From Candidatus Omnitrophota bacterium (GTDB lineage Bacteria > Omnitrophota > Omnitrophia > Omnitrophales > Omnitrophaceae), in NCBI GenBank assembly GCA_016209715.1, contig JACQVP010000063.1:1-39940 (forward strand): DNA of 39,940 bases. Direction: 5' to 3'. The first letter of the stretch is position 1, and every line of letters begins with the position of its first letter. Under the pieces are notes generated by a model. It was not told the DNA's origin. It made no database searches and worked only from the letters and a program-made list of their open reading frames with translations. The position numbers and the translations under genes were made by a program. This document shows, piece by piece, positions 17,042 to 38,183 of this stretch.

Positions 17042-17977
17042 CTATTTGGGCAAATCGCCGGGAGAGAAGGCGGAAAGAAGGGCTTGATTGGTGGGGTACT
17101 TCTGCATGAGTTCGACCAGCACCCGGGCGGCCTCCGGGGCGTCCATCCCGGCCAGGCCTCGGCGCAGGATCCTGATCCTTTGCAGCTCCTCCGGATCGAG
17201 AAGGAGCTCTTCCTTGCGCGTGCCGCTGCGGGAAATGTCGATCGCGGGAAAGATGCGCCGGGAGGAAATATCGCGGGAGAGGACGATTTCCATATTTCCG
17301 GTTCCCTTGAATTCCTCGAAAATCACGTCGTCCATCCGGCTCCCCGTCTGGATGAGAATGGTCGCCAGGATGGTGAGCGACCCGCCGTTCTCGATCTTGC
17401 GGGCCGAGCCGAAAATCCGGCGCGGCACTTCCAGCGCGCGGGAATCCACGCCTCCGGACAGCGTCCGGCCGCTGGAGCGCCTTTCCACGTTGTGCACCCG
17501 CGACAGCCGCGTCAGCGAATCAATGAGGAGCACCACGTTCTCGCCTTTTCCCGCTTCCTGATAGGCTTGGCGCATCAGCCGGTCGGCCGTCTCGATATGG
17601 TGGTCGTAAGTTTCATCCGAAGACGAAGAGCGCACCTCGGCCGGGACGCTACGCTGAAAATCGGTGACTTCTTCCGGCCGCTCGTCCACCAGCAGGAGAT
17701 ACAATTTGGCCGCCGGCGCCGAAGCCGCGATCGCCCGGCTCAAATGCTTCAGGATAGTGGTCTTGCCGGACCCCGGGGGCGCCACGATAAGCCCGCGCTG
17801 GCCCATGCCAATCGGGCAGACGAGGTCGATCGCGCGCATGGTGAATTCGGAAAGCCCCGCCTCCAGCCGGATCCTGGGCGACGGGTCGACGGGAACGCCG
17901 GAGAAAAAAGGGTCCGCCGTCTGCTGCGGCCGCTGGAAATGTTTTCGGGAATGCCCGGGGGAGTCGTGTCGTCTCAT
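17042..17977 (-). CDS. rho: Short Rho-family ATPase lacking the N-terminal RNA-binding domain
   Basis: PIGMGQRGLIVAPPGSGKT, LVDERPEEVTD, DSLTRL, GRTLSGG, EEFKGTGNME, SGTRKEELL; only 311 aa. Confidence 0.85.
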   Translation of the reverse strand: MRRHDSPGHSRKHFQRPQQTADPFFSGVPVDPSPRIRLEAGLSEFTMRAIDLVCPIGMGQRGLIVAPPGSGKTTILKHLSRAIAASAPAAKLYLLLVDERPEEVTDFQRSVPAEVRSSSSDETYDHHIETADRLMRQAYQEAGKGENVVLLIDSLTRLSRVHNVERRSSGRTLSGGVDSRALEVPRRIFGSARKIENGGSLTILATILIQTGSRMDDVIFEEFKGTGNMEIVLSRDISSRRIFPAIDISRSGTRKEELLLDPEELQRIRILRRGLAGMDAPEAARVLVELMQKYPTNQALLSAFSPGDLPK

Positions 17978-18040: not shown

Positions 18041-21000
18041 TCAGGCGGCAGTCGAGATCAGCCTTTCGGACTCGGCGAACCGGAGCAGGTCGGCGATCAG
18101 CCCCATGAGCCGGAACGCCAGATCGTCCGGCGCGCGGGGGAAGCCGTTCGAACCCGCGTCGGCGAGTTGCCGGCGAAGCGTGCTGAAAAGAACCGTTTCG
18201 ACGAACCCGACCAAAAGCGGCAAAGGCAGGGCGCGGCTGGCCGCGCGGCCGAGATGGATTCCCCGTTCGCGCAGGACGGATCCGGGCCCCAGCGCCACCG
18301 GCGTTTCCTCGGAGGCGATAAAGAGCCCGGCCTGCTGAATTTTCCTTCCCGTCACGGGCTTACGGTCGGCGTGACCGATCAAGGCCACGGGAACCCGGAG
18401 GGCGCGGATCCAGTCCAGGGCTTCCGGATCGACGACCGGATAAGAAACGAGCAGTCTCGCGGTTTTGGCGATACGTTCCAAATAAGAAGAGGCCTCGCCC
18501 GTGAACGCGGCGCGGAGGATTTCGTAATCAAAACCGTATGCCCGGGATTCTTCCAGAGACACGGGAGAAAATTCCAAGGCCTCGAGGTCGAAACCCTGCG
18601 CGGCGCGGCGGCCGGAAGCGGCCATGAGCCGGCGCGCCTGTTCCAGAATTTGAATCCGCTCCGCGAGATCCCGGCCGAAAAACCAGGCCAGGCGGGCCCG
18701 ATCCTGCGCGGTGAGAGGGGCCTCGGCGGCCGGGCTTTCCCGCGCGGAAGCGGGCAGGCCGATGAAAAGCGCAAATTGGACCGTGAGAATCAATGCTTCG
18801 GCCTCCCGCTTCGGGACGGCCCCGGCGGATTCCGCCGCCAGACGGCGCGCGAGCGCCGGAAAACCTTGCGCTTCGTCTCTCAGCCATTCAAAAAAATCGG
18901 CGCCTTCCCTTGCCTCAAGGCCCCGTTCGAAACCCTCCCGTAAATTCCGGACAAACGTCTCGGCCCGGACTATTTCCGAATCCGTTTCTTTTTTCCATGC
19001 CGCGACGGCCCCGGCAAAAATGCGCCCGGCTTCTTCGTCGAAAAGCCGCGCCGGCAGATCCAGCGACCGCCACAGCGCCCGCGCATCGGCGCCCAGCGAT
19101 TGCGCCATGCGGGCTTCGATCTTCGTAGGAATGCCGCGTTGCTCCAGGGCCTGTTTCAGACGGCCGTTCGCCGGATCGGACGAGCCCAGGACCTCGGCCA
19201 CACGGCGCCGGAGACGGTCCAACTCATCATGAGTGAGGTCCTCGCGGGCGGTCAAGCGTTCGATCGCCGCCAAGGTCCCCCGCTCATCCGACCCCATGAG
19301 CCGCTTGAGGAGGGTGTCTTCGTCCCAGAATTCTTCTTCTTTCTTGAAGGAGCCGGTATCGATGAAGCGCAATTTGCCGGAACGGTCCAGCAGAAAATTG
19401 AGGGGATTCAGGTCCCAGAGGAAATATCCCCTGGCCGCGTACTTCGCGACCAGCTCGCGAATTTGCCGTTCCGCTCCCGCCGCCATCTCGGGATGGAGTA
19501 CCAGCATGTCGGCGGCCGGCCTCTCATCCAGAAATTCCATCATCAGGATAAGCGACCGGCCCGTCTTGTCCCGCACCGTCCCGAGGAGCCAGGGAGCCGC
19601 CTCGATGTCGTTGGCCTGAGCGAATCGCAGACTTTCCAGGTCCGTCTGAAGGTTCCCGGCGGCGACGGCCGCCGATTTCGCCGTCCCGAATTTCTTTCCG
19701 GTCTCCGATTCCGCCGCCGCCGTTTTTCCGCCCACGATTTTGACGGCGGCGACCCGCGTCTCCCGGGTCCAGGGCAGCGAATATTCCACGCGATAGACGT
19801 CTCCGAATCCGCCGTCGCCGGCCCAGCGGAGCGCGCGGACGGTCAGCCCGCCCTTCTCCAAGGCCTGCCGGAGGTAATCTTGCTGGTCTTCGCCGGGACG
19901 GGGGCGCCTGAACCGGATGTCCGTTTCGGCTTGATCGGGACGCACGACGACCAGAGTGATGTCGTCCAGCCGGAGATTCATGTCCGAGAAAATTTCTTCG
20001 AGGTCCGCGTCGGGAAGAGCGGCGATTTCGGACGGCTCGGGCATCCGCTCCGCGAGATCCGCCGGAAGCGCGTTCGGATGGGCCGCGGCCAATTTGCCCC
20101 GGCCCTGCGGCGTCATTTTGAACATTTCCCGGGCGATCCGCCGCGCCACGCGGGGCTTGTCCAGGCTGACCAAAAGATGCGACATCGCGCGGATGAGCGC
20201 GGAGGTCCGGCGGACCAAATGCCGCGCCATTTCTTCAGCCGAAGGAAGCGGCTCTCCGCTCGCGACCCGCTCCTGAACGAAGCCGTCGGCCATCGCATAA
20301 AGAGTGGCCTCCTGCCCGAGTTCAAGCATCCGGCGCAAAGCCTCATAATGCCGGGCAGGCTCTTCGCGGAGCGCCGCGGCCCGTTCCTCTTCGTCCATTT
20401 CATCCATCCGCGCGAAGGCCTGCGCCAAAAGCGTCTCGGTCTGCAAGAGAGAGTCCATCAGCCCGTCCGTGGAATAAATCAGATAAGACGGAAATTCGAA
20501 GGGATTGACGGGGACGGAAACCGGCCGCACGTCGCCGAGAGGGACTTTCTGGGGCAACCCGAGCGGGGCGAAAGTGATTTCCTGCTCTTTTTTCGCCAAA
20601 GAGGCACTCGCGCCGGAGGAAGCCACCAGGCCGATGACGGGATTGCCGCCGGCCTGAAGCAGGGTGAGCCGGCCGTTTCGCCGGTTGATCACGTGCAGGG
20701 ACACCAGGGTCATGAAGTGCATGGCGTCCAGCAGCTCCTTCATCTCCACCCGCTCGGGCCCGTCACCCTTTCGCTGAATTTCCACCGGCGGAAGCGCCTG
20801 GATTTTCGCTACCTGTTCCCGGCTGAGGCCCCGGGCCAGCGCCGTGATCGAACCGGGAAGATCGTCCAGGCCCTTGACGCGGAGCACATCGAGTAAGCGG
20901 GCCAGCCCTTCGCGCGCCGGCTTGAGCCCGCGCAGCTCCGCGAGGTAATAGGCCACGTTCACGGCATCGATCGCATCCATATAAGCGAGGAGCGCGTGAT

Positions 21001-24000
21001 TCAAAAAGAGAATGAATTCAGTCGTGATGGCCGCGATTCTTTCTTCGCCGGCGGCCTGGATCCGGTCGGCCAGTCGGCCCCGGCCGGAAACCGGGCTCTC
21101 GATCCCGGCGGTTTCGTAGATCCGTATGGCCTCATAGAGCACGTGATTGATCCGGGCGGACGTCATGTCATGCCCTGCCGCGTCCATCAAAAGCACGACC
21201 TCGTACTTTCCGTCCGCGCTCAGGGAAAGATAGTGCCCGTCGCCGCCGTAGGCGTCGTTGAGCGGCTTGGAATAAACATGAGAGCCGGCCAGCATGGATT
21301 TGAAGCGCGAGGCCGAACGGCGTATGTCAGGCAAAGAAATCGAATCGAAGAGCGAGACTTCTTCTTTCAGCCGTTCCAGCAGGGCGGCCTGATATTCGGA
21401 TGGGCCCGTCACCTCCGGTTTTTCAACGAGAGCGCCCAGGGAATTGCCGAAGACGCTCTCGAGGTCAAAGCGCCCCTCATAAGTCAGCCAGGAAGTCGTG
21501 CCCCGGCCTTCCGGACCGGACGGGGTGACGGCAAATCCCCAGCGGCTGTCCGCGGAAACGGGGCCCCGCTCTTCCATCAAACGCGCCGCGCTGAGCGCCC
21601 CCAGCACATTGCCGGCGTCCGTCAAAGCCGTGCGACCCTGCGGCGTGACCGCCAGATAATGAAATCCCGCGCTCAGGCCGATCTTGGCCAGCTCCGGCAT
21701 CTCCGCGAAAACCCGAGCCCCGTCCGACGTCCTCCCGGTCAGGCTCATCACGCCGTAGGGAGACAGATTTTCGGCGGCCATATTCGCGGAAATAGCGCTG
21801 CCCGGCGTTCCTTGACTGACGGCCGCGAAGGCAAAATTGGCGAGAGGACCCGCCAGAGCGATCTCCTGAAGCCGTTTCGGGTTTTTAACGGCCCACGCGT
21901 CGAGCGTGGGATATTCCGCGGTGGGAACGAACTGCCGCCCCATGTCCACCCCCGCAAAATGAAGCGGCATCACGAACCGGCCCCGGCTCAATTTTCCGGT
22001 CACGAGGCCGGAGCCCACCCCGAGGGCCAAATTGCCCCAGCCGTAACCGTAAATCCGAGAAACTTCGGGGGCCCGGAAATTGCCGGGCGCGGCCAAATGC
22101 ATTTTTTGGGCATGCGCGAACTCATGAAAATAAAGAGACGGCAGGGGAGCGAGCGCCGCCGTCAAGAGACGCCGGGTGTCGCCGGCAGGCACTCCCCGGC
22201 GGGCCCAGTCCCGGTCCAGGGAATGCAGGGCATAGTTCGCGCCGATCGAAATCGCCAAAGCGGCCGCCCATTTTTCTTTGGCCTGCACGGCCGCTTCGGG
22301 AGCCGCGGAAACCGCGGACAAGAATTGGCCGAAGAACAGGGACACGGCCAAGACTATGGCCGCCGTCCTCCGCCGGAGCGGGGATTCCCGCCGCTCGCCC
22401 AGAGCCGACGCCGCCGGTAAGGATTCGAAGGCGAGTTGCGGCCATCCCGGAACGAAGGATGCCTTTTCGGCCGCGGCGGAAGCGCGGACTTTTTTCATCA
22501 TCGCGTTGTATCCGGCGCGCCGTTTTTTCCGGTATTGAAATCCGTCGTCGAGGTACAAATTTTCGGCGGCCTCGTTGCCGGCTTCGACTTCCAGGACCAG
22601 GCGCGTCCTGCCCTCCTCGCGGGCGACCTGTTCGGTGGCGGCGAGCAACTGGCGCCGGGTCCCGGGATCGGGCCGGACGGCCATCATCTCGATCTCAAGA
22701 TAGCGGTCCCCCGTGTTCGGGATTTCGGATTCCGGATTGTTCACGACATACCCCACGACTTGCCCGTCGGCAATGGCCACCACGCTCCATTCGCCGAGTT
22801 CGTCGCGTTGCATCTCCAGCACAATGTCCTGATTGATCCCCAGGATCTCGCCCTTCAGAAAGGCCTCCGCGGAGGCGAGATCCGAGATCCGGTAAAACCC
22901 GTCTTTCAGGCCCGTGACCGCGCCCAGTGACGACGCCGTGCCTCGGGCCCCCTTGGCCGGGCCCGCCGCGCGATGCCATTCCGCTTCGGCGGCCGCCCGA
23001 AAAGCAGTGAAATCGGCCTGCGCCAGGAATTGATTCACCCGGTCCCGGTAGGCCGCGAATTCCGGGGTTTGGCTGATCGCGGGATGGCGCCCCAGGCGAT
23101 CCACTTCCACTTTGCGGCTGCGCACCGCCCCGGCGAATTCCTCCTCGCCCAGAAGGGCGGCGAATTCCAGCTCGAAGCGCAGGACGGAAAAATCCTGATG
23201 GAGCGTGAACCCGCCGAGCAGGACCTCGTCTCCCGCGATGTTATCCCGGGCGAACTCACTCTCTACGAGTTCGTGAAACAACGCGCTCTTGCCGATGAAA
23301 AATCCATTTTCTCCGAGTTCTTTTTCCCGCTCGATTTGGCCGGTAAACAGATACATGCCGGGGCCGCGGATTTCGGGAGACTCAAACCATTGGGTCCCGG
23401 CAAATTCCTCCGGGGCCCGGAACGAGTCGCCTGCCTTCTCCCTGTCCTCCGCCAGCTGTTGCCGGAGCCGCTCGATTTGCCGGAAGATTTCGTCCGTCAC
23501 CGTGACTAGGGCGTAAACGCCCGGCCCGGCGAGGCCGGCAACTTCAATCATCCCGAACGCGCGGCCGAAGTCCCCGGCGGGAACCTGTCGCAATTCGTCC
23601 AGGGACCGATAGCGGGAGGCGATGTTTTTCCAGACCGCGGCGGCGGCCCTTTCACGACGCGCTTGCATCAGTCCCAGCGCGTCGATGAATCTTCCGGCCA
23701 GGCGGTGTTGGGCGGGATCCCGGGCCTCCGAAAGCCCGGCGTCGCTGACGGCAAAAGCGATTTGATCGCCGGGATACAGGACACTGATCAAATTATAGTC
23801 CGCGCCGTCCACCATCGGCTGGAGGACCCCCAGGCGAATCAAATCTCTGATGTCGGCATCGGTAAAATCGGCGCGGTTGCCGAGCAAAAGCTCCCGGATC
23901 GCCGGGGCAATGGCCTCAAGCGTCCGCGAATCGCCCTGAAGATCGGCAGGGATCGTTTTGGCTCCGTATCGAAGCGTGACGGCCGAACCCAGCGCCGCGG

Positions 24001-25945
24001 CGGCGAGAGGCTCTCCCCGCGGGCGGGCCCGCTTCGGGATCTGCCCGCGCAAAACGTTTTCGAACAAGCCCGGCCCGTCCGCGATCATGTTGTCGAGCGA
24101 AGCGGCCAGCATCGATGCCCGGAACCGCCGCCCCAGTCGGCCCAGCTTCTTCCACGATTGTTCCCGAATGCGGCGGACGGAACGGGCGCGAAAAGCGGCC
24201 CATTCCGGTTCCGCCGCCGCGGACAATTGGTCCTTGGCCCGGCGCGAATCCGAAGATCCGTATTTTTGGGCGTATTCGGCCGCCAGGCGGTCAATGTAAG
24301 GCGTGTATTCCGCCGCTTTATCCAAACGTCCCTGCCGGCCCAAAGCTCCCAGCAGATCCCGGCGCCATTGCCGGAGGATCCGCTTCAGATCGGGCTCATT
24401 CAGGCCGTCCGTCAGGGCCTTCGCGGCATGCTTCAGGAAAGCGTCGTAGGCGGTCGTTTCGAGAAATGATTTATACGACACGTCTCCCATCAGCACCGGC
24501 GCATACCGGTCTGACCCCCGGAGCGAATCGATCCGCGGCGTAATCAGCGCGTAGGAATAGCCCTTCGCTTTGAGGCTCTCGAAAAAACCCCCGGTGTGAA
24601 AGCCCCCCGCCAAGACCACGACGGAGCGCGCCCGGGTCTTTTTGAGCAAACGGCTCAGATTGTTCTCGAGGGCCCCGTCGCGCGCGAGCGCCGTGCGGTA
24701 AAATTCCTCGGCCGGCTCCAGCAAATCCGCGCGGGAGAAAAAGTCGAGAACGGCCCCGCGCTTTTCTTGATAGGCCTTCCAATCCTCGCGGCTCATCTCG
24801 AGCTGGGCCAGGCGCCGGAGCCAGATCAAATATTCATAGCGGGAAGAAATCCGTTCCGCTTCCGGGCCGGAGACCAGTCCGCGCTCAGTCTCCCGGAGAA
24901 GGCTTTCGATCTCGCCGAAAACGCGGCTGCCTTTGATTGCGGCCACCGAAGCGGCCTCGTCGAGCAGCTCTTTTTGCGCGGGCGTCCATGCGGCGGGTAT
25001 CTGCCGGGACAAGGCCAGCCGGGAAAGATATTTCAGATAGGATGCCGTGTCGAGCCGGCCGGTCATGAATTCCTGATGGCGGGCGCGGGCGATTTTTAAT
25101 TGCCGCGCGCTGAACCGGCGCCCGTGCGAGCGAAGGAGTTCCCGGCCCAGCTCTCGCGCGGATGCCGCCAGTTGATCCGCGTCGAGCGCTTCCGTCCGGC
25201 CGAGAGAAGCAAGCAGGCGGGACAATTCCGGATACCGGCCGGTTTTTCCCCGCACCGCCGGAGATTCGCCGAGAAAGCGCAGGAACTCGAGCCAATCCAG
25301 GCGGTCGTTCCGGAAGGCGTCCGCCTTCTCGTGAAAGGCATTGTGGCCGGCCGTGTACACCCGCTTTCTTTCCGCGTCCAACCGTGCGCGCAAATCTTCA
25401 AGCGTGCGGTTGATTTCCTCCTGTCCGGCCGCAGACCGGAGGTAAGCCCGGTAATTTTTTTCGTATAAGCGGGTGTCTTCAAGGCCATAAAAATCAGCCT
25501 CGGGACCGAACACAGCCGCGAGCTGGGCCCCGGTGACTTCTCCCCGTTCGAGATAGCCCCGGAACGCCAGGCGCTTTTTCCTCGACGCGGGAAAGGCGCG
25601 CAAAACCGCCGGATCGATGCGGCCCGCTCCGCCTTCCAGCGCCACGAGCCGGACGCCGCAGGCCCGATTCAAATACCCGATCAAGTCGCGGATATGAATT
25701 TGCGCGTCCACCGTCGCGTGGGCGTCCTGAATAAAAATCACGAAGGGTTGATCGCTTGCCGGCGCGCGGAATTCCCGGAGCGTTCCGAGTTCGGGCGGCA
25801 CGGTCAAACGGCCGGAAAGATAAAAACCTTCCGCGGCCGGGGCGGACGGAACGGTAGCGGCCGGCGCCATCTGAGCGGGGAGGAAACACGCCAATATAAA
25901 TAATGACAAAAATTTTCGAATGGGAACTGACATCTTAATCAACAC
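18041..25945 (-). CDS. Giant secreted multi-module protein (TIKI/EreA-like N-domain, GNAT, M50 protease, PP2C phosphatase, Ser/Thr kinase) with repeated [AG]x[SA]LG linkers
   Basis: 2634-aa ORF, N-terminal hydrophobic signal; motifs IQDAH/ALEG/GGFH, NEAAENLY..GF, HEFAH/AGPLAN/NLSP..SDG, DAAGHD/TDG/DDITL, GDGGFG/VAAVK/DLNPLN/IDTG; alternative ATG at 25933. Confidence 0.85.
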   Translation of the reverse strand: MLIKMSVPIRKFLSLFILACFLPAQMAPAATVPSAPAAEGFYLSGRLTVPPELGTLREFRAPASDQPFVIFIQDAHATVDAQIHIRDLIGYLNRACGVRLVALEGGAGRIDPAVLRAFPASRKKRLAFRGYLERGEVTGAQLAAVFGPEADFYGLEDTRLYEKNYRAYLRSAAGQEEINRTLEDLRARLDAERKRVYTAGHNAFHEKADAFRNDRLDWLEFLRFLGESPAVRGKTGRYPELSRLLASLGRTEALDADQLAASARELGRELLRSHGRRFSARQLKIARARHQEFMTGRLDTASYLKYLSRLALSRQIPAAWTPAQKELLDEAASVAAIKGSRVFGEIESLLRETERGLVSGPEAERISSRYEYLIWLRRLAQLEMSREDWKAYQEKRGAVLDFFSRADLLEPAEEFYRTALARDGALENNLSRLLKKTRARSVVVLAGGFHTGGFFESLKAKGYSYALITPRIDSLRGSDRYAPVLMGDVSYKSFLETTAYDAFLKHAAKALTDGLNEPDLKRILRQWRRDLLGALGRQGRLDKAAEYTPYIDRLAAEYAQKYGSSDSRRAKDQLSAAAEPEWAAFRARSVRRIREQSWKKLGRLGRRFRASMLAASLDNMIADGPGLFENVLRGQIPKRARPRGEPLAAAALGSAVTLRYGAKTIPADLQGDSRTLEAIAPAIRELLLGNRADFTDADIRDLIRLGVLQPMVDGADYNLISVLYPGDQIAFAVSDAGLSEARDPAQHRLAGRFIDALGLMQARRERAAAAVWKNIASRYRSLDELRQVPAGDFGRAFGMIEVAGLAGPGVYALVTVTDEIFRQIERLRQQLAEDREKAGDSFRAPEEFAGTQWFESPEIRGPGMYLFTGQIEREKELGENGFFIGKSALFHELVESEFARDNIAGDEVLLGGFTLHQDFSVLRFELEFAALLGEEEFAGAVRSRKVEVDRLGRHPAISQTPEFAAYRDRVNQFLAQADFTAFRAAAEAEWHRAAGPAKGARGTASSLGAVTGLKDGFYRISDLASAEAFLKGEILGINQDIVLEMQRDELGEWSVVAIADGQVVGYVVNNPESEIPNTGDRYLEIEMMAVRPDPGTRRQLLAATEQVAREEGRTRLVLEVEAGNEAAENLYLDDGFQYRKKRRAGYNAMMKKVRASAAAEKASFVPGWPQLAFESLPAASALGERRESPLRRRTAAIVLAVSLFFGQFLSAVSAAPEAAVQAKEKWAAALAISIGANYALHSLDRDWARRGVPAGDTRRLLTAALAPLPSLYFHEFAHAQKMHLAAPGNFRAPEVSRIYGYGWGNLALGVGSGLVTGKLSRGRFVMPLHFAGVDMGRQFVPTAEYPTLDAWAVKNPKRLQEIALAGPLANFAFAAVSQGTPGSAISANMAAENLSPYGVMSLTGRTSDGARVFAEMPELAKIGLSAGFHYLAVTPQGRTALTDAGNVLGALSAARLMEERGPVSADSRWGFAVTPSGPEGRGTTSWLTYEGRFDLESVFGNSLGALVEKPEVTGPSEYQAALLERLKEEVSLFDSISLPDIRRSASRFKSMLAGSHVYSKPLNDAYGGDGHYLSLSADGKYEVVLLMDAAGHDMTSARINHVLYEAIRIYETAGIESPVSGRGRLADRIQAAGEERIAAITTEFILFLNHALLAYMDAIDAVNVAYYLAELRGLKPAREGLARLLDVLRVKGLDDLPGSITALARGLSREQVAKIQALPPVEIQRKGDGPERVEMKELLDAMHFMTLVSLHVINRRNGRLTLLQAGGNPVIGLVASSGASASLAKKEQEITFAPLGLPQKVPLGDVRPVSVPVNPFEFPSYLIYSTDGLMDSLLQTETLLAQAFARMDEMDEEERAAALREEPARHYEALRRMLELGQEATLYAMADGFVQERVASGEPLPSAEEMARHLVRRTSALIRAMSHLLVSLDKPRVARRIAREMFKMTPQGRGKLAAAHPNALPADLAERMPEPSEIAALPDADLEEIFSDMNLRLDDITLVVVRPDQAETDIRFRRPRPGEDQQDYLRQALEKGGLTVRALRWAGDGGFGDVYRVEYSLPWTRETRVAAVKIVGGKTAAAESETGKKFGTAKSAAVAAGNLQTDLESLRFAQANDIEAAPWLLGTVRDKTGRSLILMMEFLDERPAADMLVLHPEMAAGAERQIRELVAKYAARGYFLWDLNPLNFLLDRSGKLRFIDTGSFKKEEEFWDEDTLLKRLMGSDERGTLAAIERLTAREDLTHDELDRLRRRVAEVLGSSDPANGRLKQALEQRGIPTKIEARMAQSLGADARALWRSLDLPARLFDEEAGRIFAGAVAAWKKETDSEIVRAETFVRNLREGFERGLEAREGADFFEWLRDEAQGFPALARRLAAESAGAVPKREAEALILTVQFALFIGLPASARESPAAEAPLTAQDRARLAWFFGRDLAERIQILEQARRLMAASGRRAAQGFDLEALEFSPVSLEESRAYGFDYEILRAAFTGEASSYLERIAKTARLLVSYPVVDPEALDWIRALRVPVALIGHADRKPVTGRKIQQAGLFIASEETPVALGPGSVLRERGIHLGRAASRALPLPLLVGFVETVLFSTLRRQLADAGSNGFPRAPDDLAFRLMGLIADLLRFAESERLISTAA

Positions 25946-26732: not shown

Positions 26733-26748
26733 TGTGACACCGGTCACG
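26733..26748. promoter_or_regulatory. Second CRP-type site upstream of the crp-family gene
   Basis: TGTGA-caccgg-TCACG, one mismatch to consensus. Confidence 0.6.
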
Positions 26749-26891
26749 GCATCTCAGCTATTTTCCTAGGGGCCGCTAATCCTAACCCCTGTGCTTTTCT
26801 CGGCTTGTATGAGCCCTTTTGGGAAGCATTCTGATACCGGTCCCCCCGGAGGCAAGATAGCCTAAAAGTGTGTTTAAAAGGGAGGTGCGCG

Positions 26892-27776
26892 ATGGACCAA
26901 TCAGCAATAGTGAAAGAAGAGCTGACAGCGGAAGGAAGGATCCATTCCCATATCAGTTGGGGGGCCATTGTGGCCGGGTACATCCTTGCCGCGGCATTTG
27001 GGTTTTTGTTCTCGGTTCTCGGGTCGGCTATCGGAATCTCCGGCATTAACCTGTCGGAGGGCCAGATGAGCGCCGGGGGATTGACCCTGGCTTCCGTGTT
27101 CTGGCTTTTCCTGACCTGGGTCGGCTGCATGTTTCTCGGCGGCCTGTTCGCCGGGTTTCTGGCGGGGGAAATCGACCGGCTCACCGGTGCCGTCCACGGG
27201 ATCAGCGTTTGGGCGCTGGCCAATGTGATGGCCCTGTTTTTCGGAACCGCGGGACTGATGACCGTGGGACAGGCGGCGGGGCAAATCGGGTTCGGGCTGG
27301 CCGTCTCGGCGCCGGTTGCCCAGCAAAACGAGCAACGGGGAGAGAGAGAACGCAGCCTCGGAGACCGGGTCCAAACCCAGCTCAAGGAGACGATGGCGCA
27401 AGGCGTGAGCGCGGTGAGCGGCGATGAAGTCCGCCGGGGCGAAGTCCGCGAAGCCATCGACCGGCTGGACAACGCAACCTTGGTCACGATCAGCGGAGAA
27501 TTGGCGCGCGGTGACCAGGATCGCGCGAAAGAAATCCTGCTGGACCGGACCGGCCTTTCCGAAAGCGAAGCTGACGCCATCATGCAAGGCGTGGGCGCGA
27601 AGGTGAGCCGCGGAGCGAAAACGGCGGCGAATTACACCACGGCCGCCTTGTGGACGCTTTTCTTCGGCAGCCTTCTCGGTTTGCTGGCGGCGTATTTCGG
27701 CGGGACCACCGGGACGCAATTTGTCCTGAACCGCCATTTCGCCTATGCTTCCACCTGGAAGCACACAAACTCCTGA
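26892..27776 (+). CDS. Uncharacterised multi-pass membrane protein (ISWGAI..G type)
   Basis: GGAGGT RBS; three N-terminal TM segments, soluble insert, C-terminal TM. Confidence 0.75.
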   Translation: MDQSAIVKEELTAEGRIHSHISWGAIVAGYILAAAFGFLFSVLGSAIGISGINLSEGQMSAGGLTLASVFWLFLTWVGCMFLGGLFAGFLAGEIDRLTGAVHGISVWALANVMALFFGTAGLMTVGQAAGQIGFGLAVSAPVAQQNEQRGERERSLGDRVQTQLKETMAQGVSAVSGDEVRRGEVREAIDRLDNATLVTISGELARGDQDRAKEILLDRTGLSESEADAIMQGVGAKVSRGAKTAANYTTAALWTLFFGSLLGLLAAYFGGTTGTQFVLNRHFAYASTWKHTNS

Positions 27777-30522: not shown

Positions 30523-31107
30523 ATGATTGTCTTCCTCGTCCTCGTCGCCATCCTCGCCGTCTTGGCGCTCGCCTTGGCCGCGATTTACAACAATCTCGTC
30601 AGTCTCCGCAACCGCTATAAAAATTCTTACGCGCAAATCGACGTCCAGTTGAAGCGGCGCTATGACCTCGTCCCGAACCTGGTCGAGGCCGCCAAAGGAT
30701 ACTTGAAACACGAGCGCGAAACGCTCGAGGCCGTCATTCAGGCCCGCAATCAGGCGGTTGCCGCGGCCGGACGCGCCGCCGCGTCGCCGGGCGATCCGGG
30801 GGCCATGCAATCCCTGCGGGGTGCCGAGGCCGGGCTGACCGGCGCTTTAACAAAACTCCTGGCCCTTTCCGAGGCCTATCCGGACCTCAAGGCCAACCAA
30901 AACATGATGCGGCTCATGGAAGAGCTCGCCTCCACGGAAAACCGCATCGCCTTCGCGCGCCAGGCCTTCAACGACACCGTTACCGAGTACAACACCGCGA
31001 GGGAAAAATTTCCGGCCGTGCTCGCGGCGGGCCCCCTCGGTTTCGGCCCCGCGGCGCTCCTCGAAGGCGACGACCGCTCGTCCTCCGCCCCGGCCGTCAA
31101 ATTTTAA
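30523..31107 (+). CDS. lemA: LemA family protein
   Basis: N-terminal TM, IDVQLKRRYDLVPNLV, EAYPDLKAN, TENRIAFARQ. Confidence 0.95.
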   Translation: MIVFLVLVAILAVLALALAAIYNNLVSLRNRYKNSYAQIDVQLKRRYDLVPNLVEAAKGYLKHERETLEAVIQARNQAVAAAGRAAASPGDPGAMQSLRGAEAGLTGALTKLLALSEAYPDLKANQNMMRLMEELASTENRIAFARQAFNDTVTEYNTAREKFPAVLAAGPLGFGPAALLEGDDRSSSAPAVKF

Positions 31108-31116
31108 GGGCCCGGC

Positions 31117-33042
31117 GTGAATTTCTTCCGGGAGCAGGAACGCGCCCGCTCGAAGACCCGCTGGCTCGTCCTCTTTTATCTCATCACCGTCGGGCTGATC
31201 ATCCTCGCCGTATACCCCGCCGTCCTTTACGCCCTCACTTTCATTGATCAGGAGCGCGCCTTCCGGTTTCATTCCCTCGCCTTCCCGCAAAATTTTTGGG
31301 ACCCGGCCGTTGGCCTCGGGACATCGCTCGCCGTCCTTGCGATCGTGCTGATCGGGTCCGTGGCCAAAATCATCGAATTGAGCCGGGGAGGCCGCGCCGT
31401 CGCGGAATTTCTCGGGGGCCGGCTCCTCCCGCCGGGAACAACGGACCCGGAAGAGCGGCAGGTCCTGAATATCGTCGAAGAGGTAGCCATCGCGTCGGGG
31501 ACCGGCGTCCCTCCCGTGTACCTGCTCGACGAGGAAAAATCGATCAACGCCTTCGCGGCGGGATTTTCCACGCGCGACGCGGTCATCGGCGTCACCCACG
31601 GGGCCGTCAAGCTCTTGTCGAGGGACGAATTGCAGGGCGTGATCGCCCATGAATTCAGCCATATCCTGAACGGCGACATGCGCCTGAATCTCCGCCTCAT
31701 GGGCATCCTTCACGGCATCCTGATGATGACCGTCATCGGGCGCGGCCTGCTGGATGTCTGCCGGCCCCGGGGCTCCCGCAAACGGGGAGGCGGCGGGGGA
31801 GGCATCCTCGGCGCCGTCGCCATCACCGGTTTCACATTTTGGCTGGTCGGCTGGATCGGAGTTTTTTTCAGCCGGCTCATCAAGAGCGCCATCTCGCGCC
31901 AGCGGGAATCGCTGGCCGACGCCTCGGCCGTCCAATACACCCGCCTCCCGGTCGGCCTTGCCGGCGCGCTCAAGAAAATCGGCGGCCTGTCACACCGCTC
32001 CGTCCTCGAGCATCCCCGGGCCGAAGAGGCGAGCCACCTTTATTTCGCCAAAGGTCTCGCGCTGGCCCGCCTGTTCGACACGCATCCCCCGCTCGAGCAG
32101 CGGATCAAACAGCTGGATCCCGCCTTCGACGGCGCCTGGCCCCTGGTCAGATATCCCGAGAAGCCGCGTCCCGTCATCGAAAAGCCCAAACCCCCGCTCG
32201 CCGTGCCTTCGGCCGCGGCCCTGCAAGTGAACGCCCTCCTCGCCGGGCTCGGCCAATTGAACGAATCCCATCTGGCATGGTCGGCCTCGCTCATCGCCGA
32301 AATCCCGGAATTCATCCGGGAGAATTTAAGGGACGCCGTCGGCGCGCGCGCCGTCTTCTATTCTCTCCTGCTGGAACCGGCCCGCGAAGAAACCAAGAAA
32401 ATTCAGCGCCGGCATCTTTTTCAGCACGGCAACTATCTCGTCTACCAGCGCCTCTTGAAAATCGCCCAGGCCGCATCGGCCCTGCCCGTCCGCCTGCGCT
32501 TGCCGCTCGTGGACCTCGCCCTGCCGTCCCTCTCGACGCTGTCGCCGGCGCAATACGCCATGTTCCGGAACGACACGGAGGTTTTGATCGCCGCGGACGG
32601 CAAAGTCTATCCTTTTGAATTGGCGCTCAAAATCGTGGCCCTGCATCATCTCGACGGCGTATTCGGGAGGGAAATGAAGCGGGAAGCGGCGGCGGGTGAA
32701 AAGGAAATCCTCGAGGCGGGAATGGTTCTTTTCGCGTTTCTCGCGAACACCGGCCATTGCGGAAACCCGGCCAAAGCCGAGGCCGCGTTCCGGGAAGCGG
32801 CCGCCCACTGGGGCGAAGGCGCCCCGGCCGTCGCATTCAAGGCCTCCGACACGGCCGATCCCGGCTCCGTCGAGCAAGCGCTCTCCGTCCTGCAGGGATT
32901 GAAGCCCGCTCAAAAGAAAGTTTTTCTCCGCGCCTGCGCGCGCTCCATCCGAAGCGACAGCGTCTGTCTTCCCGAAGAAATCGAAGTGGTCCGCGCCTTC
33001 GCCGACGTTCTCGACACTCCCGTCGGCCCGGTGTTGGGCTGA
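31117..33042 (+). CDS. M48/HtpX-like membrane zinc protease with long C-terminal extension
   Basis: INAFAAG, IAHEFSH, ISRQRESLAD, THPPLEQRI; follows lemA. Confidence 0.88.
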   Translation: MNFFREQERARSKTRWLVLFYLITVGLIILAVYPAVLYALTFIDQERAFRFHSLAFPQNFWDPAVGLGTSLAVLAIVLIGSVAKIIELSRGGRAVAEFLGGRLLPPGTTDPEERQVLNIVEEVAIASGTGVPPVYLLDEEKSINAFAAGFSTRDAVIGVTHGAVKLLSRDELQGVIAHEFSHILNGDMRLNLRLMGILHGILMMTVIGRGLLDVCRPRGSRKRGGGGGGILGAVAITGFTFWLVGWIGVFFSRLIKSAISRQRESLADASAVQYTRLPVGLAGALKKIGGLSHRSVLEHPRAEEASHLYFAKGLALARLFDTHPPLEQRIKQLDPAFDGAWPLVRYPEKPRPVIEKPKPPLAVPSAAALQVNALLAGLGQLNESHLAWSASLIAEIPEFIRENLRDAVGARAVFYSLLLEPAREETKKIQRRHLFQHGNYLVYQRLLKIAQAASALPVRLRLPLVDLALPSLSTLSPAQYAMFRNDTEVLIAADGKVYPFELALKIVALHHLDGVFGREMKREAAAGEKEILEAGMVLFAFLANTGHCGNPAKAEAAFREAAAHWGEGAPAVAFKASDTADPGSVEQALSVLQGLKPAQKKVFLRACARSIRSDSVCLPEEIEVVRAFADVLDTPVGPVLG

Positions 33043-34655: not shown

Positions 34656-37600
34656 TTATTCAACGGCATCGGCCGCGCGGTCGATGGCCACTTCCATCGG
34701 AGTGATGTTCCCGCCTTCTTGCCGTATCTCCTTCATCAGCGCGTCCCGCTTGGGGCCGGGAGGGGTGTTGCGTATGCGTTCCTGGATTCCCTGCATGCTT
34801 CCGCCGCGATAGGTCGAGATCCTTTCCGCCGCAACCTCCGGATTAGCGCTGAACCGTTCGCCATAGGGCTCCGAGGCGGCCAGGTTGTCCTGCAAATTGC
34901 GCGTCAATTCCCGGCCGCGCGTGACCGATCCCGCCGCGGCTTTCGTCGGATAGGATCTCAGCATGCCGTCCAGTTCGCGAAAACGCGTATCGTCAAACGC
35001 TTGGCCGGATTGCCGCCGCGCCTCTTTGAGATTGCGCTGGAAAATCGATTCGGCCAAATGCGCGCGCACTTCGTTCAGCCGGCCCTTGGTTTCCGGCCCT
35101 TTGAAGCCAGGCTTATTCTGCGCGGCCCAGGACTTTTCGCCTTTATAGGTATGGGCGTATTCATGAACAATGCTGCTGGCGACCGACTCCGGACTGCGCA
35201 GTTTGGCGGTACCGGGATCATAAGGGTTCACTTGAACGTAATTCTTCTTAAAATTGCCGTCGGCGACGCCGTAGCCCTTGAGCGCCGGCTCATAAAAATA
35301 ATCGAACTTGCGGCCCGCGTCCTGGCTTTTGAGATCGTCGAGCACGCGCCTGGCCCACTTGTCACCCTGGCCCGCGGCGTCTTGGAGTGCCTTATGAACT
35401 TGGGCGTCAAAGGCCTCGCGCTGGGCCTGCGGCGTGGACATCCATTCCTTGCGCAGACGGCCCACTTCTTTCAGGTCCTTCTGAAGAATATCTTTACCGA
35501 CGGGCGCCGGGACGCGCTTCGTCCGGTCTTCAGGGACATCGGCATCATCGAGGTCTACTGCCTTCGGGGCCGCCGCCGGCGGTTTCGGGGCTTCCGTGAT
35601 TTCGGTTTTGCGGCCGAGACGCGGCGTTGTTTTCGTGCCCGCGGGATATTCGATCGTCGGCCGCATCTTTGCCGAGACGGCCGGCGGCCCGTCAGGCGCG
35701 TCAATGCGTTTGAGTTGACCGACAGCCGGATCCGGATTCGCGGCGCCGCCCGATGCCGTGCGCCCGGTCCCTACGAAATCATCCGCGCCGGGAAGAACGC
35801 GGCCCGCGAGCCCCCCGAAAACCAGCTCGCCCGCGGCCGACGCCCCGGCTTCGTACACCGCTTCACCGACCGTGAGCTCACGCCCCATGTCCGCGCCGGA
35901 CATGTCCTGCTGAAATGCGAGAGTCATCAACGGGTCCGCGGGATTCATCGAACTGAACCAATCCGTCATCCCATAGGCAATCTCTTTACTGCCCGCCAGG
36001 ATCCCGCTTTGAACATCCTCGCGCGTCGCGATACCGGCCCGCCGCAGCGCGTCGTTTTCCGCGCGGCGAAGAAGATCATCGCTCTCGCCCCGGGCCCCGG
36101 CCAGATCGCTCATATCGAAAGAACGCTTGGCGGCCTGCGCCAGCGGCTCATCGCGGCCCGTGTTGCCGCGCTCAAAGCTTCCGCCCATGAGCTTTGAATA
36201 CTCGCGCGCCGTGTGAAGCTGGGCGAGGTGGTTGGCGCCGTCAACCTTCAGCATTTGGTCCAGGTTGTCGGCAAGCTGGACGCGTCTCCGGGCATCCTGC
36301 AGCTGCTCGGGCGTGGCCGGAATTTTAGTCGCGTTGCCATTCTCGTCCGTCGACGCGATGGCGCCGGTTTCGATGACCCGGCGGTAATAATCGCGGCGTT
36401 TGTGCATTTCTTCCTGAATCATGTCCATTTCAAACTGGCGGACTTCCTGAGGAGTCTGCGGATCGGCCTCCTCCCAGCGGCGGTCGAATTCGGCCTGGCG
36501 CCGGCGCTCCTGCTCTTCCTGAGCGCGCGCCCGGCTTCCCTTTTCGCGCGCGTCCGCGGCGGCTTGTTCAGCCGCGGCCTTTTCGGCGTCGAGCGCGGCC
36601 TGGCGCTCGGCTTGCTCCTGCCGGATCGCTTCCAATTTCCCGCGCTCGGCTTCCTGCCGCACTCTTTCGTCTTCCCCCAGTTTGTCGAGAGAAGCTTCCC
36701 GGCGCGCTTGATCCTTTTCTCTTTGCGCCTCCAGCCGCTCCCGCGATTCCCGGTTCTGATCGATGAATTCCTGATCGCGACGGTACTGTTCCCGGTCCCG
36801 GTCGGAAAGATCTTCCCAGTTCTGCCTCAAACCGAGTTCCCGCTTTTGTTCTTCGAATAGATGGCGCCCGGGCTCGATTTCGCGGCCCTCCGCCTCTCGC
36901 CTCTCCAGAACATCGCCGTTCTGATCGAGCACCAGCTCGCGGGCCGGCCCCTCATCATAGCGGGTGGTGCGGACCGTATTTCCCATGTCATCCGCGCGGT
37001 TTTCAACCAACACCCGTTTCTCCGAGACGAGATTGCCGTCCGGATCATAAACGCGTTCCGTGCCGTAGCCGTCGCGGTCAAATTCCGTGACGGTCGTATG
37101 CTGCCAGGGATCGACGCGCGCCTCCACCGTCCGGCCCTGATCGTCGGTCTCGGTGATCGTGGGATTTCCAAACGAGTCCGTGCGCGTGCGGCTGACCAGC
37201 CGGCCCTGGCTGTCCCGCTGTTCCGTGATACTGCCGCCGGAGCCGGACCCGCTCTCTTCAAATTCCGTGACGGTTTCGCCGGTGGCCGGATCGGTCGTAA
37301 CCGTGCGGCGGGCACCGTCCGGCAGCTCCGTGGTTTCAATGCGCCGCCCGTCTTCACCCGTCCGGGTGGTCTTGACGGTCGTACCCGCTTCCGGAGAGGA
37401 GCTGGTTTCAATCACCGTGCCGTCGGCGCGGGTCTCGACGCGTTCCACGCGCCCATCCTTGTATTCCGTGGTTTCGATTTTGTTTCCGTCCGCGTCCCTC
37501 TCAACCGTGTGTTGATTGCCCTGTTCATCCGTCCATTCCGATTTGCCTTCCGGGCCTTTTTCTTTTTCCTCCGGGCCCTCTTCGGGCAAATCTTCCGGCG

Positions 37601-38183
37601 ATTCGGAGCTCAGGGGGTCGGCAGGCGTGGGCAGTGAAGGCGGCGTCTCGGGAGCCGGCTCATTGGGAATGCCGGTCACGTCTTCAGCGCTTTTCAACAA
37701 GTCGCTATAAGTGACGCGATCGGTGCTTTGGCTGTTTTTCATAGATTCGATCGCACCCGCGAGGGCTTCCCGCTGATAAGGATCGGCCGTCGCGGCCATT
37801 TGCTTTTCCAGCTGCTGAATTTGGTAATCGAAATATTGGCGGCGGGCGTTGAAAACCCGGTCTTCATATCCCGGAAAGACCGGCTGCTCAGACTCCCGGA
37901 AACCCTTCTGCAGGTTCTGATAATAAACCATCATCGATTGAATGGACTGACGTTCCTCGGGGGTGCGGGCCGCCGCCAGCCTCTGCTCGAGCTGATCGAG
38001 CTGGCCCTGCATTTTTTCGTTTAACGCCGCGGACTGGTCGGAAGAAGGCGGTTCCTGTTTCTTTTCTTCCGGGTTATCGGAGGCCCCGCCGAGGATGTCG
38101 GCCAAACCGGCTTGCAGGGAAACCGGAAGGAGCAAAAGCATCGTCAAAAGGAGGAGGCCCGCTGAAGGGGCGGGTTTGGTCAT
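34656..38183 (-). CDS. Large secreted protein with beta-hairpin repeats, coiled coil and C-terminal HExxH domain
   Basis: Signal peptide ending LQA; ~11-aa T/D/G repeats; E/R/A-rich coil; IVHEYAH...NEVRAH. Confidence 0.75.
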   Translation of the reverse strand: MTKPAPSAGLLLLTMLLLLPVSLQAGLADILGGASDNPEEKKQEPPSSDQSAALNEKMQGQLDQLEQRLAAARTPEERQSIQSMMVYYQNLQKGFRESEQPVFPGYEDRVFNARRQYFDYQIQQLEKQMAATADPYQREALAGAIESMKNSQSTDRVTYSDLLKSAEDVTGIPNEPAPETPPSLPTPADPLSSESPEDLPEEGPEEKEKGPEGKSEWTDEQGNQHTVERDADGNKIETTEYKDGRVERVETRADGTVIETSSSPEAGTTVKTTRTGEDGRRIETTELPDGARRTVTTDPATGETVTEFEESGSGSGGSITEQRDSQGRLVSRTRTDSFGNPTITETDDQGRTVEARVDPWQHTTVTEFDRDGYGTERVYDPDGNLVSEKRVLVENRADDMGNTVRTTRYDEGPARELVLDQNGDVLERREAEGREIEPGRHLFEEQKRELGLRQNWEDLSDRDREQYRRDQEFIDQNRESRERLEAQREKDQARREASLDKLGEDERVRQEAERGKLEAIRQEQAERQAALDAEKAAAEQAAADAREKGSRARAQEEQERRRQAEFDRRWEEADPQTPQEVRQFEMDMIQEEMHKRRDYYRRVIETGAIASTDENGNATKIPATPEQLQDARRRVQLADNLDQMLKVDGANHLAQLHTAREYSKLMGGSFERGNTGRDEPLAQAAKRSFDMSDLAGARGESDDLLRRAENDALRRAGIATREDVQSGILAGSKEIAYGMTDWFSSMNPADPLMTLAFQQDMSGADMGRELTVGEAVYEAGASAAGELVFGGLAGRVLPGADDFVGTGRTASGGAANPDPAVGQLKRIDAPDGPPAVSAKMRPTIEYPAGTKTTPRLGRKTEITEAPKPPAAAPKAVDLDDADVPEDRTKRVPAPVGKDILQKDLKEVGRLRKEWMSTPQAQREAFDAQVHKALQDAAGQGDKWARRVLDDLKSQDAGRKFDYFYEPALKGYGVADGNFKKNYVQVNPYDPGTAKLRSPESVASSIVHEYAHTYKGEKSWAAQNKPGFKGPETKGRLNEVRAHLAESIFQRNLKEARRQSGQAFDDTRFRELDGMLRSYPTKAAAGSVTRGRELTRNLQDNLAASEPYGERFSANPEVAAERISTYRGGSMQGIQERIRNTPPGPKRDALMKEIRQEGGNITPMEVAIDRAADAVE

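Follow-up and report, generated by a model that had tools for sequence, protein, structure and literature searches.

Giant multi-enzyme genes in the Omnitrophota are a recognised puzzle, and the cutting of their products is asked about in two reports (10.1101/2023.11.21.568195 and 10.64898/2026.06.07.730766). In the accessible text of the first, cleavage by C39 or S8 peptidase domains is proposed, and information on cleavage points is said to be lacking. The accessible text of the second describes 'multi-enzyme metabolic cluster' giants that carry signal peptides as well as membrane helices, and leaves linkers and processing unmentioned. The same question is raised by a giant open reading frame (ORF) on contig JACQVP010000063.1 of a Candidatus Omnitrophota bacterium (GenBank assembly GCA_016209715.1). 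The stretch analysed covers positions 1 to 39,940 of this contig (39,940 nucleotides, to be referred to as the window), and the protein encoded by the giant ORF will be referred to as the query. It begins with an N-terminal domain (to be referred to as the head domain), followed by cargo units and by short words that recur in the linkers. What is the head domain, and does it cut these linkers? The original prediction, made from the sequence alone, was that the domain belongs to the EreA/ChaN/TIKI superfamily and may cleave the xSLG linkers of the protein.

The head domain (residues ~45–610) is very probably a member, and a very divergent one, of the Tiki/TraB/EreA/ChaN superfamily. The superfamily assignment of the original prediction is upheld by structural matches, by an alignment of the R...GxxH region with TraB, by two spacings of 28 residues, and by invariant residues of a catalytic type. 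A parallel β-sheet core, a 2His/2Glu set, and an arginine located one helix ahead of a GxxH motif are all found in the domain.

The residues singled out in that prediction, H76, E104, E156, R422 and H450, are located at these positions in the ORF translation (Table 1). Their conservation was examined in a MAFFT alignment of the query and 176 homologues that cover query residues ≤70 to ≥500, with 65 of the 241 hits excluded as partial or fragmentary. All five residues are invariant in the alignment, as are Y416, G447, G448, P470 and Y481. In the genome of the query itself, H76, E104, E156, Y416, R422 and H450 are kept in all seven paralogues that can be aligned. Judged from these alignments, the conservation of the five residues is far beyond chance.

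A model of the head domain was built with AlphaFold2 (AF2) from a 40-row alignment, with a predicted local distance difference test score (pLDDT) of 86.3 and a predicted TM-score (pTM) of 0.76. The model has a split α/β core (residues 45–157 and 438–485) and a helical tail that runs on to about residue 618, while residues 611–648 are disordered. The strands of the core (residues 68–74, 100–103, 151–155, 441–447 and 464–470) are flanked by helices, and each of them ends just ahead of a conserved residue. R422 is located in a helix (residues 406–437) that precedes the last catalytic strand. The model bears out the claim of strand-ending motifs and of a long helical insert (residues 158–437), which separates the two halves of the core. 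As they are placed where the parallel strands end on the C-terminal side, the five residues are expected to cluster in one site.

The model was compared by VIA-align with 48,161 representative chains. The best match is EreC (6xcq, Z score 7.5, root mean square deviation 3.3, 150 residues aligned). ChaN (2g5g) is at rank 3 (Z 7.3), 2qgm at rank 7 (7.0), HopBA1 (5t09) at rank 8 (7.0) and 2rad at rank 11 (6.9), and members of the superfamily make up five of the top eleven matches. With the comparison made over the best 925 chains from Foldseek, the top six are all EreC, ChaN, HopBA1 or Bcr135 (Z 6.9–7.5), and each of them covers model residues ~42–483. The superfamily matches align 145–184 residues. 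These matches, which are based on a predicted model, carry weight because they agree among themselves and fit the evidence from the sequence.

A search of the ESM Atlas finds only Omnitrophota clusters without names, and searches against the sequences of solved structures give a best E value of 0.55 with the single protein and 0.2 with a profile. Some members of the family are closer to known profiles. The ChaN family (PF04187) matches three of 40 family members at E ≤0.1 (best P0105, 5.2e-5; P0091, 0.018), and the TraB family (PF01963) matches two of the 40 at the same limit (P0154 and P0218, 0.016–0.017), in all cases under the gathering score. At E ≤0.05, two of 39 members match PF04187 and two match PF01963 with coordinates. 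All four of these located matches, again sub-threshold, fall on the equivalent of residues ~400–490 and on the C-terminal end of the Pfam profiles.

A canonical TraB gene was found in one of the 151 genomes searched in the phylum, and this gene with 120 homologues served as the TraB comparison set. The invariant positions read from 30 aligned TraB sequences (alignment A3) are H68, E94, E193, R269, N270, G292, G294 and H295. The order H-E-E-R-GxxH is thus common to TraB and the head domain. A comparison by hhalign of residues 400–500 of the head domain (177 rows) with 120 TraB rows gives Prob 64% and P 6.6e-5, with R422 placed on R269 and H450 on H295 (GAGH). With smaller alignments (30-row TraB), the values are Prob 34% and E 4.2e-4. 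Against one TraB protein the result is Prob 0.3%; the signal came only with the 30-row and then the 120-row TraB alignment.

Several results weigh against the superfamily assignment. A Foldseek search of the whole model against the Protein Data Bank gives nothing at E ≤1e-3; helical proteins are dominant in its output, and EreC is present only at ranks 29 and 47. The Z scores of the fold matches are all below 8, in the range where a common arrangement is possible, and Rossmann-like folds are interleaved with the superfamily among the 48,161 chains. Pfam and NCBIfam give no match to the head domain (residues 1–648) even at E ≤10. In hhalign comparisons, no significant alignment is obtained for the N-terminal half: residues 50–125 give P 0.067 over nine columns with the N-terminal half of TraB, and residues 40–175 give P 1e-3 with full TraB but mis-registered onto the E193 region.

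For the query, none of the curated models PF01963, PF04187 and PF05139 scores above its gathering threshold. PF05139 (the erythromycin esterase family) gives no match to the query, and PF04187 and PF01963 give none at E ≤10 in the whole of its genome. Because only sub-threshold Pfam matches were obtained, the head domain is placed in none of the families that Pfam already has and counts as a new one within the superfamily.

A detailed comparison can be made with the closest known systems. According to the accessible part of PMC6254334, the Tiki fold is a parallel sheet core with a 2His/2Glu set, and Tiki is cited there as a site-specific protease. Activity requires a metal in Tiki but not in RRSP (same source). 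In RRSP, the DUF5 effector domain of MARTX toxins and a site-specific endopeptidase of the Tiki family, the set consists of E3900, H3902, E3930 and H4030, and R4001 is needed for activity (PMC6254334). RRSP likewise has a parallel-sheet core, needs a large helical lobe, and is part of a giant multi-domain secreted protein; its acidic-x-His motif is followed by a glutamate 28 residues later (H3902–E3930), and R4001 is located 29 residues ahead of H4030 (same source). The His-Glu pair of Bcr135, H85–E113, has the 28-residue spacing as well (PMC6254334). In the head domain, H76–E104 and R422–H450 are each separated by 28 residues, so that its spacings reproduce those of Bcr135 and RRSP; the spacings and the strand ends point to equivalent residues in these enzymes.

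There are also clear differences. RRSP itself is cargo: it cuts Ras and Rap1 of the host, while the linkers of the MARTX toxin are cut by a separate cysteine protease domain. Unlike RRSP, the head domain stands at the N-terminus, carries its helical lobe as an insertion within the core, and has D74 at the position of E3900. RRSP chains are absent from the match lists of the fold searches. The best structural matches are EreA/B/C and Bcr135/136 (6xcq, Z 7.5; 6xcs, 7.1; 2qgm, 7.0; 2rad and 3b55, 6.9), but these are soluble, stand-alone macrolide esterases of ~400 residues with 12–15% identity to the head domain. TraB/PrgY/GumN/YbaP (PF01963) and vertebrate Tiki1/2 have the same invariant order, with the R...GxxH segment in register. 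They are exported or membrane-tethered, and the third invariant glutamate of TraB (E193) is comparable to E156. In comparison, TraB has ~300 residues, a short insert and no cargo fusion, and its N-terminal half gives no significant profile alignment with that of the head domain.

Thousands of giant proteins in Omnitrophota and Elusimicrobiota share the head domain, and it is the only module that they have in common. A HMMER scan of 1.84 billion representatives (clusters at 50% identity) finds 7,178 clusters at E ≤1e-3, 5,325 at E ≤1e-10 and 669 at E ≤1e-30. A word-indexed search among proteins of 1,448–4,610 residues gives 106 matches, which belong to Candidatus Omnitrophota or Elusimicrobiota where they are named. 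Among the matches listed, the domain is at the N-terminus of the protein (median offset 3 residues, range –68 to +66), and the proteins mostly have 1,500–8,000 residues. The domain profile is present at E ≤1e-10 in 115 of the 151 genomes of the phylum, and in 90 of the 124 high-quality ones; up to 77 first-look candidates were found per genome, of which only seven were scored. The genome of the query (1.37 Mb, 69% complete) has at least eight ORFs with the head domain.

The head domain of the query matches all 241 fetched members, while six other segments of the query match 0, 0, 0, 0, 1 and 1 of them. The members were found by means of the head domain, and these numbers are evidence for a variable cargo rather than for a requirement for the head domain. 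The Pfam domains of the cargo differ between members and include methyltransferases, PEP-utilising enzymes, glycogen synthase, RNase III, HD, amylase, LpxC, SecA-like and others.

A few members have additional modules or unusual forms. Precomputed Pfam matches place a Peptidase_M48 domain in P0022, P0023, P0056 and P0079. P0224 has an intein/HINT domain (PF14890, residues 1094–1218, E 3.2e-10) downstream of the head domain, which is another self-processing module in the same architecture. A complete ORF of 574 residues in the genome of the query (contig C4, 8682–10403, +) has a shortened head domain in which QIQDLH and R..GFH are kept, much of the helical insert is missing, and hardly any cargo, if any, is attached. 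This ORF may represent the domain in a stand-alone form.

The words that recur between the cargo units were counted in the tails (past residue 620) of 221 family members, 605,162 residues in total. RSELR is observed 237 times against 1.7 expected, RSEVR 181 against 1.0, RSEMR 72 against 0.3 and GASLG 41 against 1.8. Taken with the counts from the genome of the query, the enrichment of the words ranges from 11-fold to over 100-fold. The two classes are nearly exclusive. Among 242 proteins, 147 have at least two R[SA]ExR words and 35 have at least two SLG-type words; four combine the two kinds and 64 contain neither. When the 187 members of at least 2,000 residues are sorted by class, they comprise RSE (110), SLG (19), GAR (3), GFGA (2) and those with fewer than three sites (53). 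The consensus of the SLG class is [G44%/A38%]-[A37%/S19%]-S-L-G, and that of the RSE class is R-[S80%/A20%]-E-[V/L/A/M]-R. Distant members have GAR[LM][AS] words (P0101, P0095, P0102) or GFGA words (P0063, P0025), with 4–8 sites each, the first of them directly after the head domain.

The sites are separated by domain-sized intervals. Their median spacing is 357 residues for SLG and 314 residues for RSE, and Pfam matches contain only one of 83 sites, against 5.4 expected. Past the catalytic histidine, the first site comes at a median distance of 192 residues in the SLG class (n = 13) and 247 residues in the RSE class (n = 115); the distance in the query is 199 residues. In an AF2 model of residues 1–700 of the query, residues 615–674, which include the first word AAALG, have pLDDT values of 29–50.

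The original prediction had placed two linker words, AAALG and ASSLG, at residues 649–653 and 1004–1008 of the query, where both are present. Its more general claim of xSLG linkers also stands. [AS]SLG is enriched only in the giant ORFs of the genome, with 27 occurrences against 2.4 expected (about 11-fold) in the 11 ORFs of at least 1,500 residues and 27 against 31.8 in the other 1,105 ORFs; it occurs in a disordered linker, and it has counterparts (RSExR) in related giants. At the motif sites, serine is encoded by both of its codon families, leucine by CTN and TTG, and glycine by all four codons. Selection thus acts on the protein, because synonymous codons vary freely, and an origin of the motif at the DNA level (recombination or an RNA signal) was rejected on the same ground. 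An internal ASLG in the query (residues 246–249) is considered coincidental, being located inside a predicted helix (residues 239–253) with no Gly or Ala at position –2.

The occurrence of the motif and of the head domain was compared in the genome of the query. Among its 35 ORFs of at least 1,000 residues, the 22 that are N-terminally complete and have no head domain contain no strict motif. Seven ORFs have at least two motifs; two of them, both of the complete ones, have the head domain, and the N-termini of the other five are cut by contig ends. These five SLG-rich giant ORFs (2,254–4,090 residues) are on contigs C103, C96, C10, C50 and C53, and the C-termini of the head-domain ORFs on C39, C8, C42 and C101 are lost at contig ends as well. 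The giant genes seem to break the assembly of this genome. In two of the ORFs (C50_30712_37923 and C53_1_6762), a second element, xLW(L/M/F)x(3-8)[AS]SLG, is found ahead of several SLG sites (for example PLWLAGPQSSSLG and ELWMAGGGSAASLG). This sequence pattern suggests a longer recognition element in some giants.

In the query, Pfam and NCBIfam recognise the cargo only, as GNAT and PP2C/SpoIIE domains with weak kinase-like and M50-like signals. The unit bounded by motifs at residues 1009–1178 contains a whole RimI-like GNAT domain. The hydrophobic segment past the putative membrane helix at residues 1194–1212 carries HEFAH (residues 1274–1278) and AGPLANF (residues 1365–1371; window 21833–22126, minus strand). 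Together they look like the HExxH and GPxxN motifs found in membrane metalloproteases of the site-2/M50 type, with an E value of only 0.5 for Pfam M50, and the segment is a second protease-like module within the giant protein.

How are the linker words used? The most likely single reading, and a tentative one, is that the head domain is a leader protease that would cut the linker motifs. It would act as an endopeptidase behind a Sec-type signal sequence at the N-terminus of the giant precursor. D74-x-H76, E104, E156, R422 and H450 are carried by the parallel-sheet core as a catalytically intact set, and the 280-residue helical insert is probably a lid or substrate lobe. By analogy with RRSP and the Ere enzymes, water would be activated by the His-Glu pair. 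Cutting, in cis or in trans, would take place in those disordered stretches between the domains of the precursor that bear the motif of the genome. The candidate cut sites in the query are [GA][AS]SLG words at residues 649–653, 1004–1008, 1179–1183, 1501–1505 and 2282–2286. Cleavage there would release the head domain, an unknown domain, the GNAT domain, the membrane/M50-like unit, the PP2C and kinase-like region, and a C-terminal unit.

This reading is supported because the head domain is the sole shared module, belongs to a superfamily with site-specific endopeptidases, has an intact catalytic set, and is set off from the cargo by the first motif. Functional analogues are the leader proteases of viral polyproteins and the autoprocessing domain of MARTX toxins, which also have one protease module per giant precursor and short recurring sites between units. 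Their folds are unrelated to that of the head domain, however, the co-variation of protease and site that is expected in such systems is not found here, and cleavage here is only predicted. The wider proposal is that many of the enzymes of Omnitrophota and Elusimicrobiota, a sizeable share, are produced in the form of Sec-targeted polyproteins, with a Tiki-type leader protease that cuts at a genome-specific word ([GA][AS]SLG, R[SA]ExR, GAR[LM] or GFGA); it is possible, if somewhat unlikely.

Several observations, however, weigh against cleavage by the head domain. Because esterases (Ere) and a haem binder (ChaN) belong to the superfamily as well, having this fold does not in itself make the domain a protease. 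If a charged R-S-E-x-R site were replaced by a small A-S-S-L-G site, remodelled binding pockets would be expected, but conserved domain positions do not track the motif class. Among 94 columns that are at least 75% conserved in the RSE class, only column 426 (F to L) differs in all three SLG lineages, and relaxed limits add just one more, column 446 (A to L), which sets the main SLG clade apart; the test has only 2–3 independent contrasts and thus low power. Position 426 was rejected as a specificity switch, as the difference is at chance level and leucine is also present in 18 RSE members.

The motif class goes with the genome and not with the lineage of the head domain. In a FastTree phylogeny of head domains, the SLG class consists of one well-supported clade, a second distant clade, and the query alone. 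Head domains from the genome of the query fall into three distant lineages (those of the query, C39/P0108 and C62), all with SLG words. C62 is sister to an RSE-type protein (97*) and yet uses SLG, with only 3–4 sites. Whatever reads the motif thus seems to belong to the genome as a whole rather than to each head domain, because these distant lineages of one genome share the SLG words. In addition, 53 of the 187 giants of at least 2,000 residues have fewer than three sites of any class and retain the head domain, and about 29 of the 187 have no repeated 5-mer above shuffled controls, with the domain kept.

Further points concern the structure and the topology of the query. In the AF2 model of residues 1–700, the first linker stays disordered and is not docked in the active site. 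A prediction of the complex between the head domain (residues 40–610) and a linker peptide (residues 985–1025) scores 0.02 against a mark of 0.32, and is uninformative either way. The putative membrane helix at residues 1194–1212 is located between the head domain and two of the five sites (1501 and 2282), which together with the signal peptide would leave domain and sites on opposite membrane sides, and the head domain is behind a signal peptide while the cargo is of a cytoplasmic type (GNAT, PP2C and kinase-like). A crude hydrophobicity scan finds no strong membrane segment past residue 100 in 107 of the 187 giants, and 277 of the 1,041 sites of the remaining giants beyond the first membrane segment. 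Since most giants have no strong membrane segment, most sites would share the compartment of the head domain, a point in favour of cleavage by it. Overall, the original prediction stands in part: the superfamily and the linker motifs were borne out, and the comparative tests of the proposed cleavage by the head domain are mixed.

In a close rival to the leader protease, one that is somewhat unlikely in our judgement, the head domain is an exported hydrolase of the Tiki type with another substrate, and a separate, genome-specific protease reads the motifs in trans. The other substrate could be a protein of the envelope or of a prey surface, a signalling peptide (a proposal made for PrgY and TraB), an ester, or just the junction of the domain itself. 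This explanation accommodates the lack of a head-domain column that tracks the motif class, a motif class that follows the genome rather than the head-domain lineage, and the retention of the domain in giants without a detectable motif. It also fits a signal peptide that puts the domain outside the cytoplasm with sites 1501 and 2282 beyond a membrane segment, and the presence of other peptidase-like modules in members (HEFAH with AGPLANF, and Peptidase_M48). However, no candidate for the trans protease was identified, and the embedded M50- and M48-like modules are not universal. The head domain is the sole module common to all punctuated giants, and the first motif is at a fixed distance past it, as would suit the leader protease.

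It is less probable still that the motifs are uncut linker or docking elements for folding, translocation or assembly, with the giant working as one chain and the head domain being an exported anchor or enzyme. The cleavage of giants is predicted only, cutting is left open in the accessible text of the published work (10.1101/2023.11.21.568195), and the spacing and disorder of the motifs suit any inter-domain linker. On the other hand, flexible linkers need no strict word of 4–5 residues across hundreds of sites with free synonymous codons. The use of one word per genome, with at least four unrelated words (SLG, RSExR, GAR[LM] and GFGA), is the pattern of a sequence-specific reader, and units bounded by motifs match whole stand-alone enzymes such as the GNAT domain at residues 1009–1178.

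Finally, a non-catalytic ligand binder, like the haem binder ChaN or the inactive C1/C2 domain of PMT, is very improbable even with ChaN among the best structural matches (Z 7.3) and its family as the best Pfam near-hit, as both histidines, the glutamates and the arginine of the head domain are invariant in all 177 rows and the inactive PMT domain is without the 2His/2Glu set (accessible part of PMC6254334).

The coordinates of the query and its features are given in Table 1. The public gene call for the query (P0002, 2,609 residues) begins at M26 and drops the signal-peptide-like segment. Starts are available upstream, at ATG codon 5 and GTG codon 1, and the segment (window 25868–25945, minus strand) is retained by homologues. 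A hydrophobicity scan finds the hydrophobic stretch at residues 12–30, and residues 7–26 are a helix in the AF2 model. Judged from the sequences, a start upstream of M26, at ATG codon 5, is more likely, because all eight paralogues in the genome begin with a signal-peptide-like segment.

Table 1. Features of the giant ORF and its product (positions are those of the window)
Feature	Residues	Window position	Strand	Basis or remark
Giant ORF, 2,634 residues		18041..25945	-	GTG at codon 1, ATG at codons 5 and 26
Signal-peptide-like N-terminus	5-30	25856..25933	-	K/R residues, hydrophobic 12-30, APAA
N-terminal Tiki/TraB/EreA-like domain (probable)	45-610	24116..25813	-	AF2, fold searches, homologues, conservation
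VIFIQDAH	69-76			
H76 (QDAH)	76	25718..25720	-	invariant 177/177; D74 two residues earlier, 171/177
LVALEG	100-105			
E104 (LVALEG)	104	25634..25636	-	28 residues past H76; invariant 177/177
FYGLED	152-157			
E156 (FYGLED)	156	25478..25480	-	invariant 177/177
All-helical insert, 280 residues	158-437	24635..25474	-	between core strand 3 and the Arg helix; AF2 secondary structure
ALARD	419-423			
R422 (ALARD)	422	24680..24682	-	28 residues ahead of H450; invariant 177/177
VVVLAGGFH	442-450			
H450 (GGFH)	450	24596..24598	-	invariant 177/177
Disordered linker with AAALG (649-653)	611-674	23924..24115; motif 23987-24001	-	AF2
ASSLG	1004-1008	22922..22936	-	best match to [GA][AS]SLG; just ahead of GNAT unit
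GNAT acetyltransferase match	1054-1136	22538..22786	-	PF00583, E 7.2e-9
ASALG, variant	1179-1183	22397..22411	-	past GNAT unit, just ahead of the hydrophobic segment 1194-1212
Strongest internal hydrophobic segment	1194-1212	22310..22366	-	Kyte-Doolittle score 1.99; likely membrane helix
NSLGA	1501-1505	21431..21445	-	past membrane/M50-like segment
PP2C/SpoIIE phosphatase match	1735-1862	20360..20743	-	PF07228, E 6.2e-7, 30 bits vs cut-off 25
QSLGA	2282-2286	19088..19102	-	ahead of C-terminal unit

In the remainder of the window, the giant ORF is followed after 63 bases by a P-loop ATPase gene of the ATP-synt_ab family (311 residues, 17042–17977), which is likewise on the minus strand. The ATPase was rejected as a conserved partner, as there is a single paralogue in the genome (contig C5). 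Three ORFs on the minus strand have no Pfam match at E ≤1e-3, at 34656–38183 (1,175 residues), 30847–31935 (362 residues) and 26744–27583 (279 residues).

A Tiki/TraB-like head domain and recurring linker words are not mentioned in the accessible texts of 10.1101/2023.11.21.568195 and 10.64898/2026.06.07.730766, whose supplements may hold relevant domain tables. A literature search found no paper that links Omnitrophota or Elusimicrobiota with Tiki, TraB or Ere, or with the motif words. The punctuated architecture headed by this domain appears to be undescribed.

The analysis gives a name and a candidate active site to a module that is shared by the giants and has no Pfam family, and it provides concrete candidate cleavage sites. 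If the processing role is true, the head domain would be a new protease family and would represent a new bacterial way to organise gene expression. If it is false, the domain would still represent a hydrolase family of very large size that is uncharacterised and serves as the mark of a distinctive architecture of proteins. The polyprotein reading, if true, would be a cellular counterpart of the viral polyprotein strategy and would explain the many giant genes in these small genomes.

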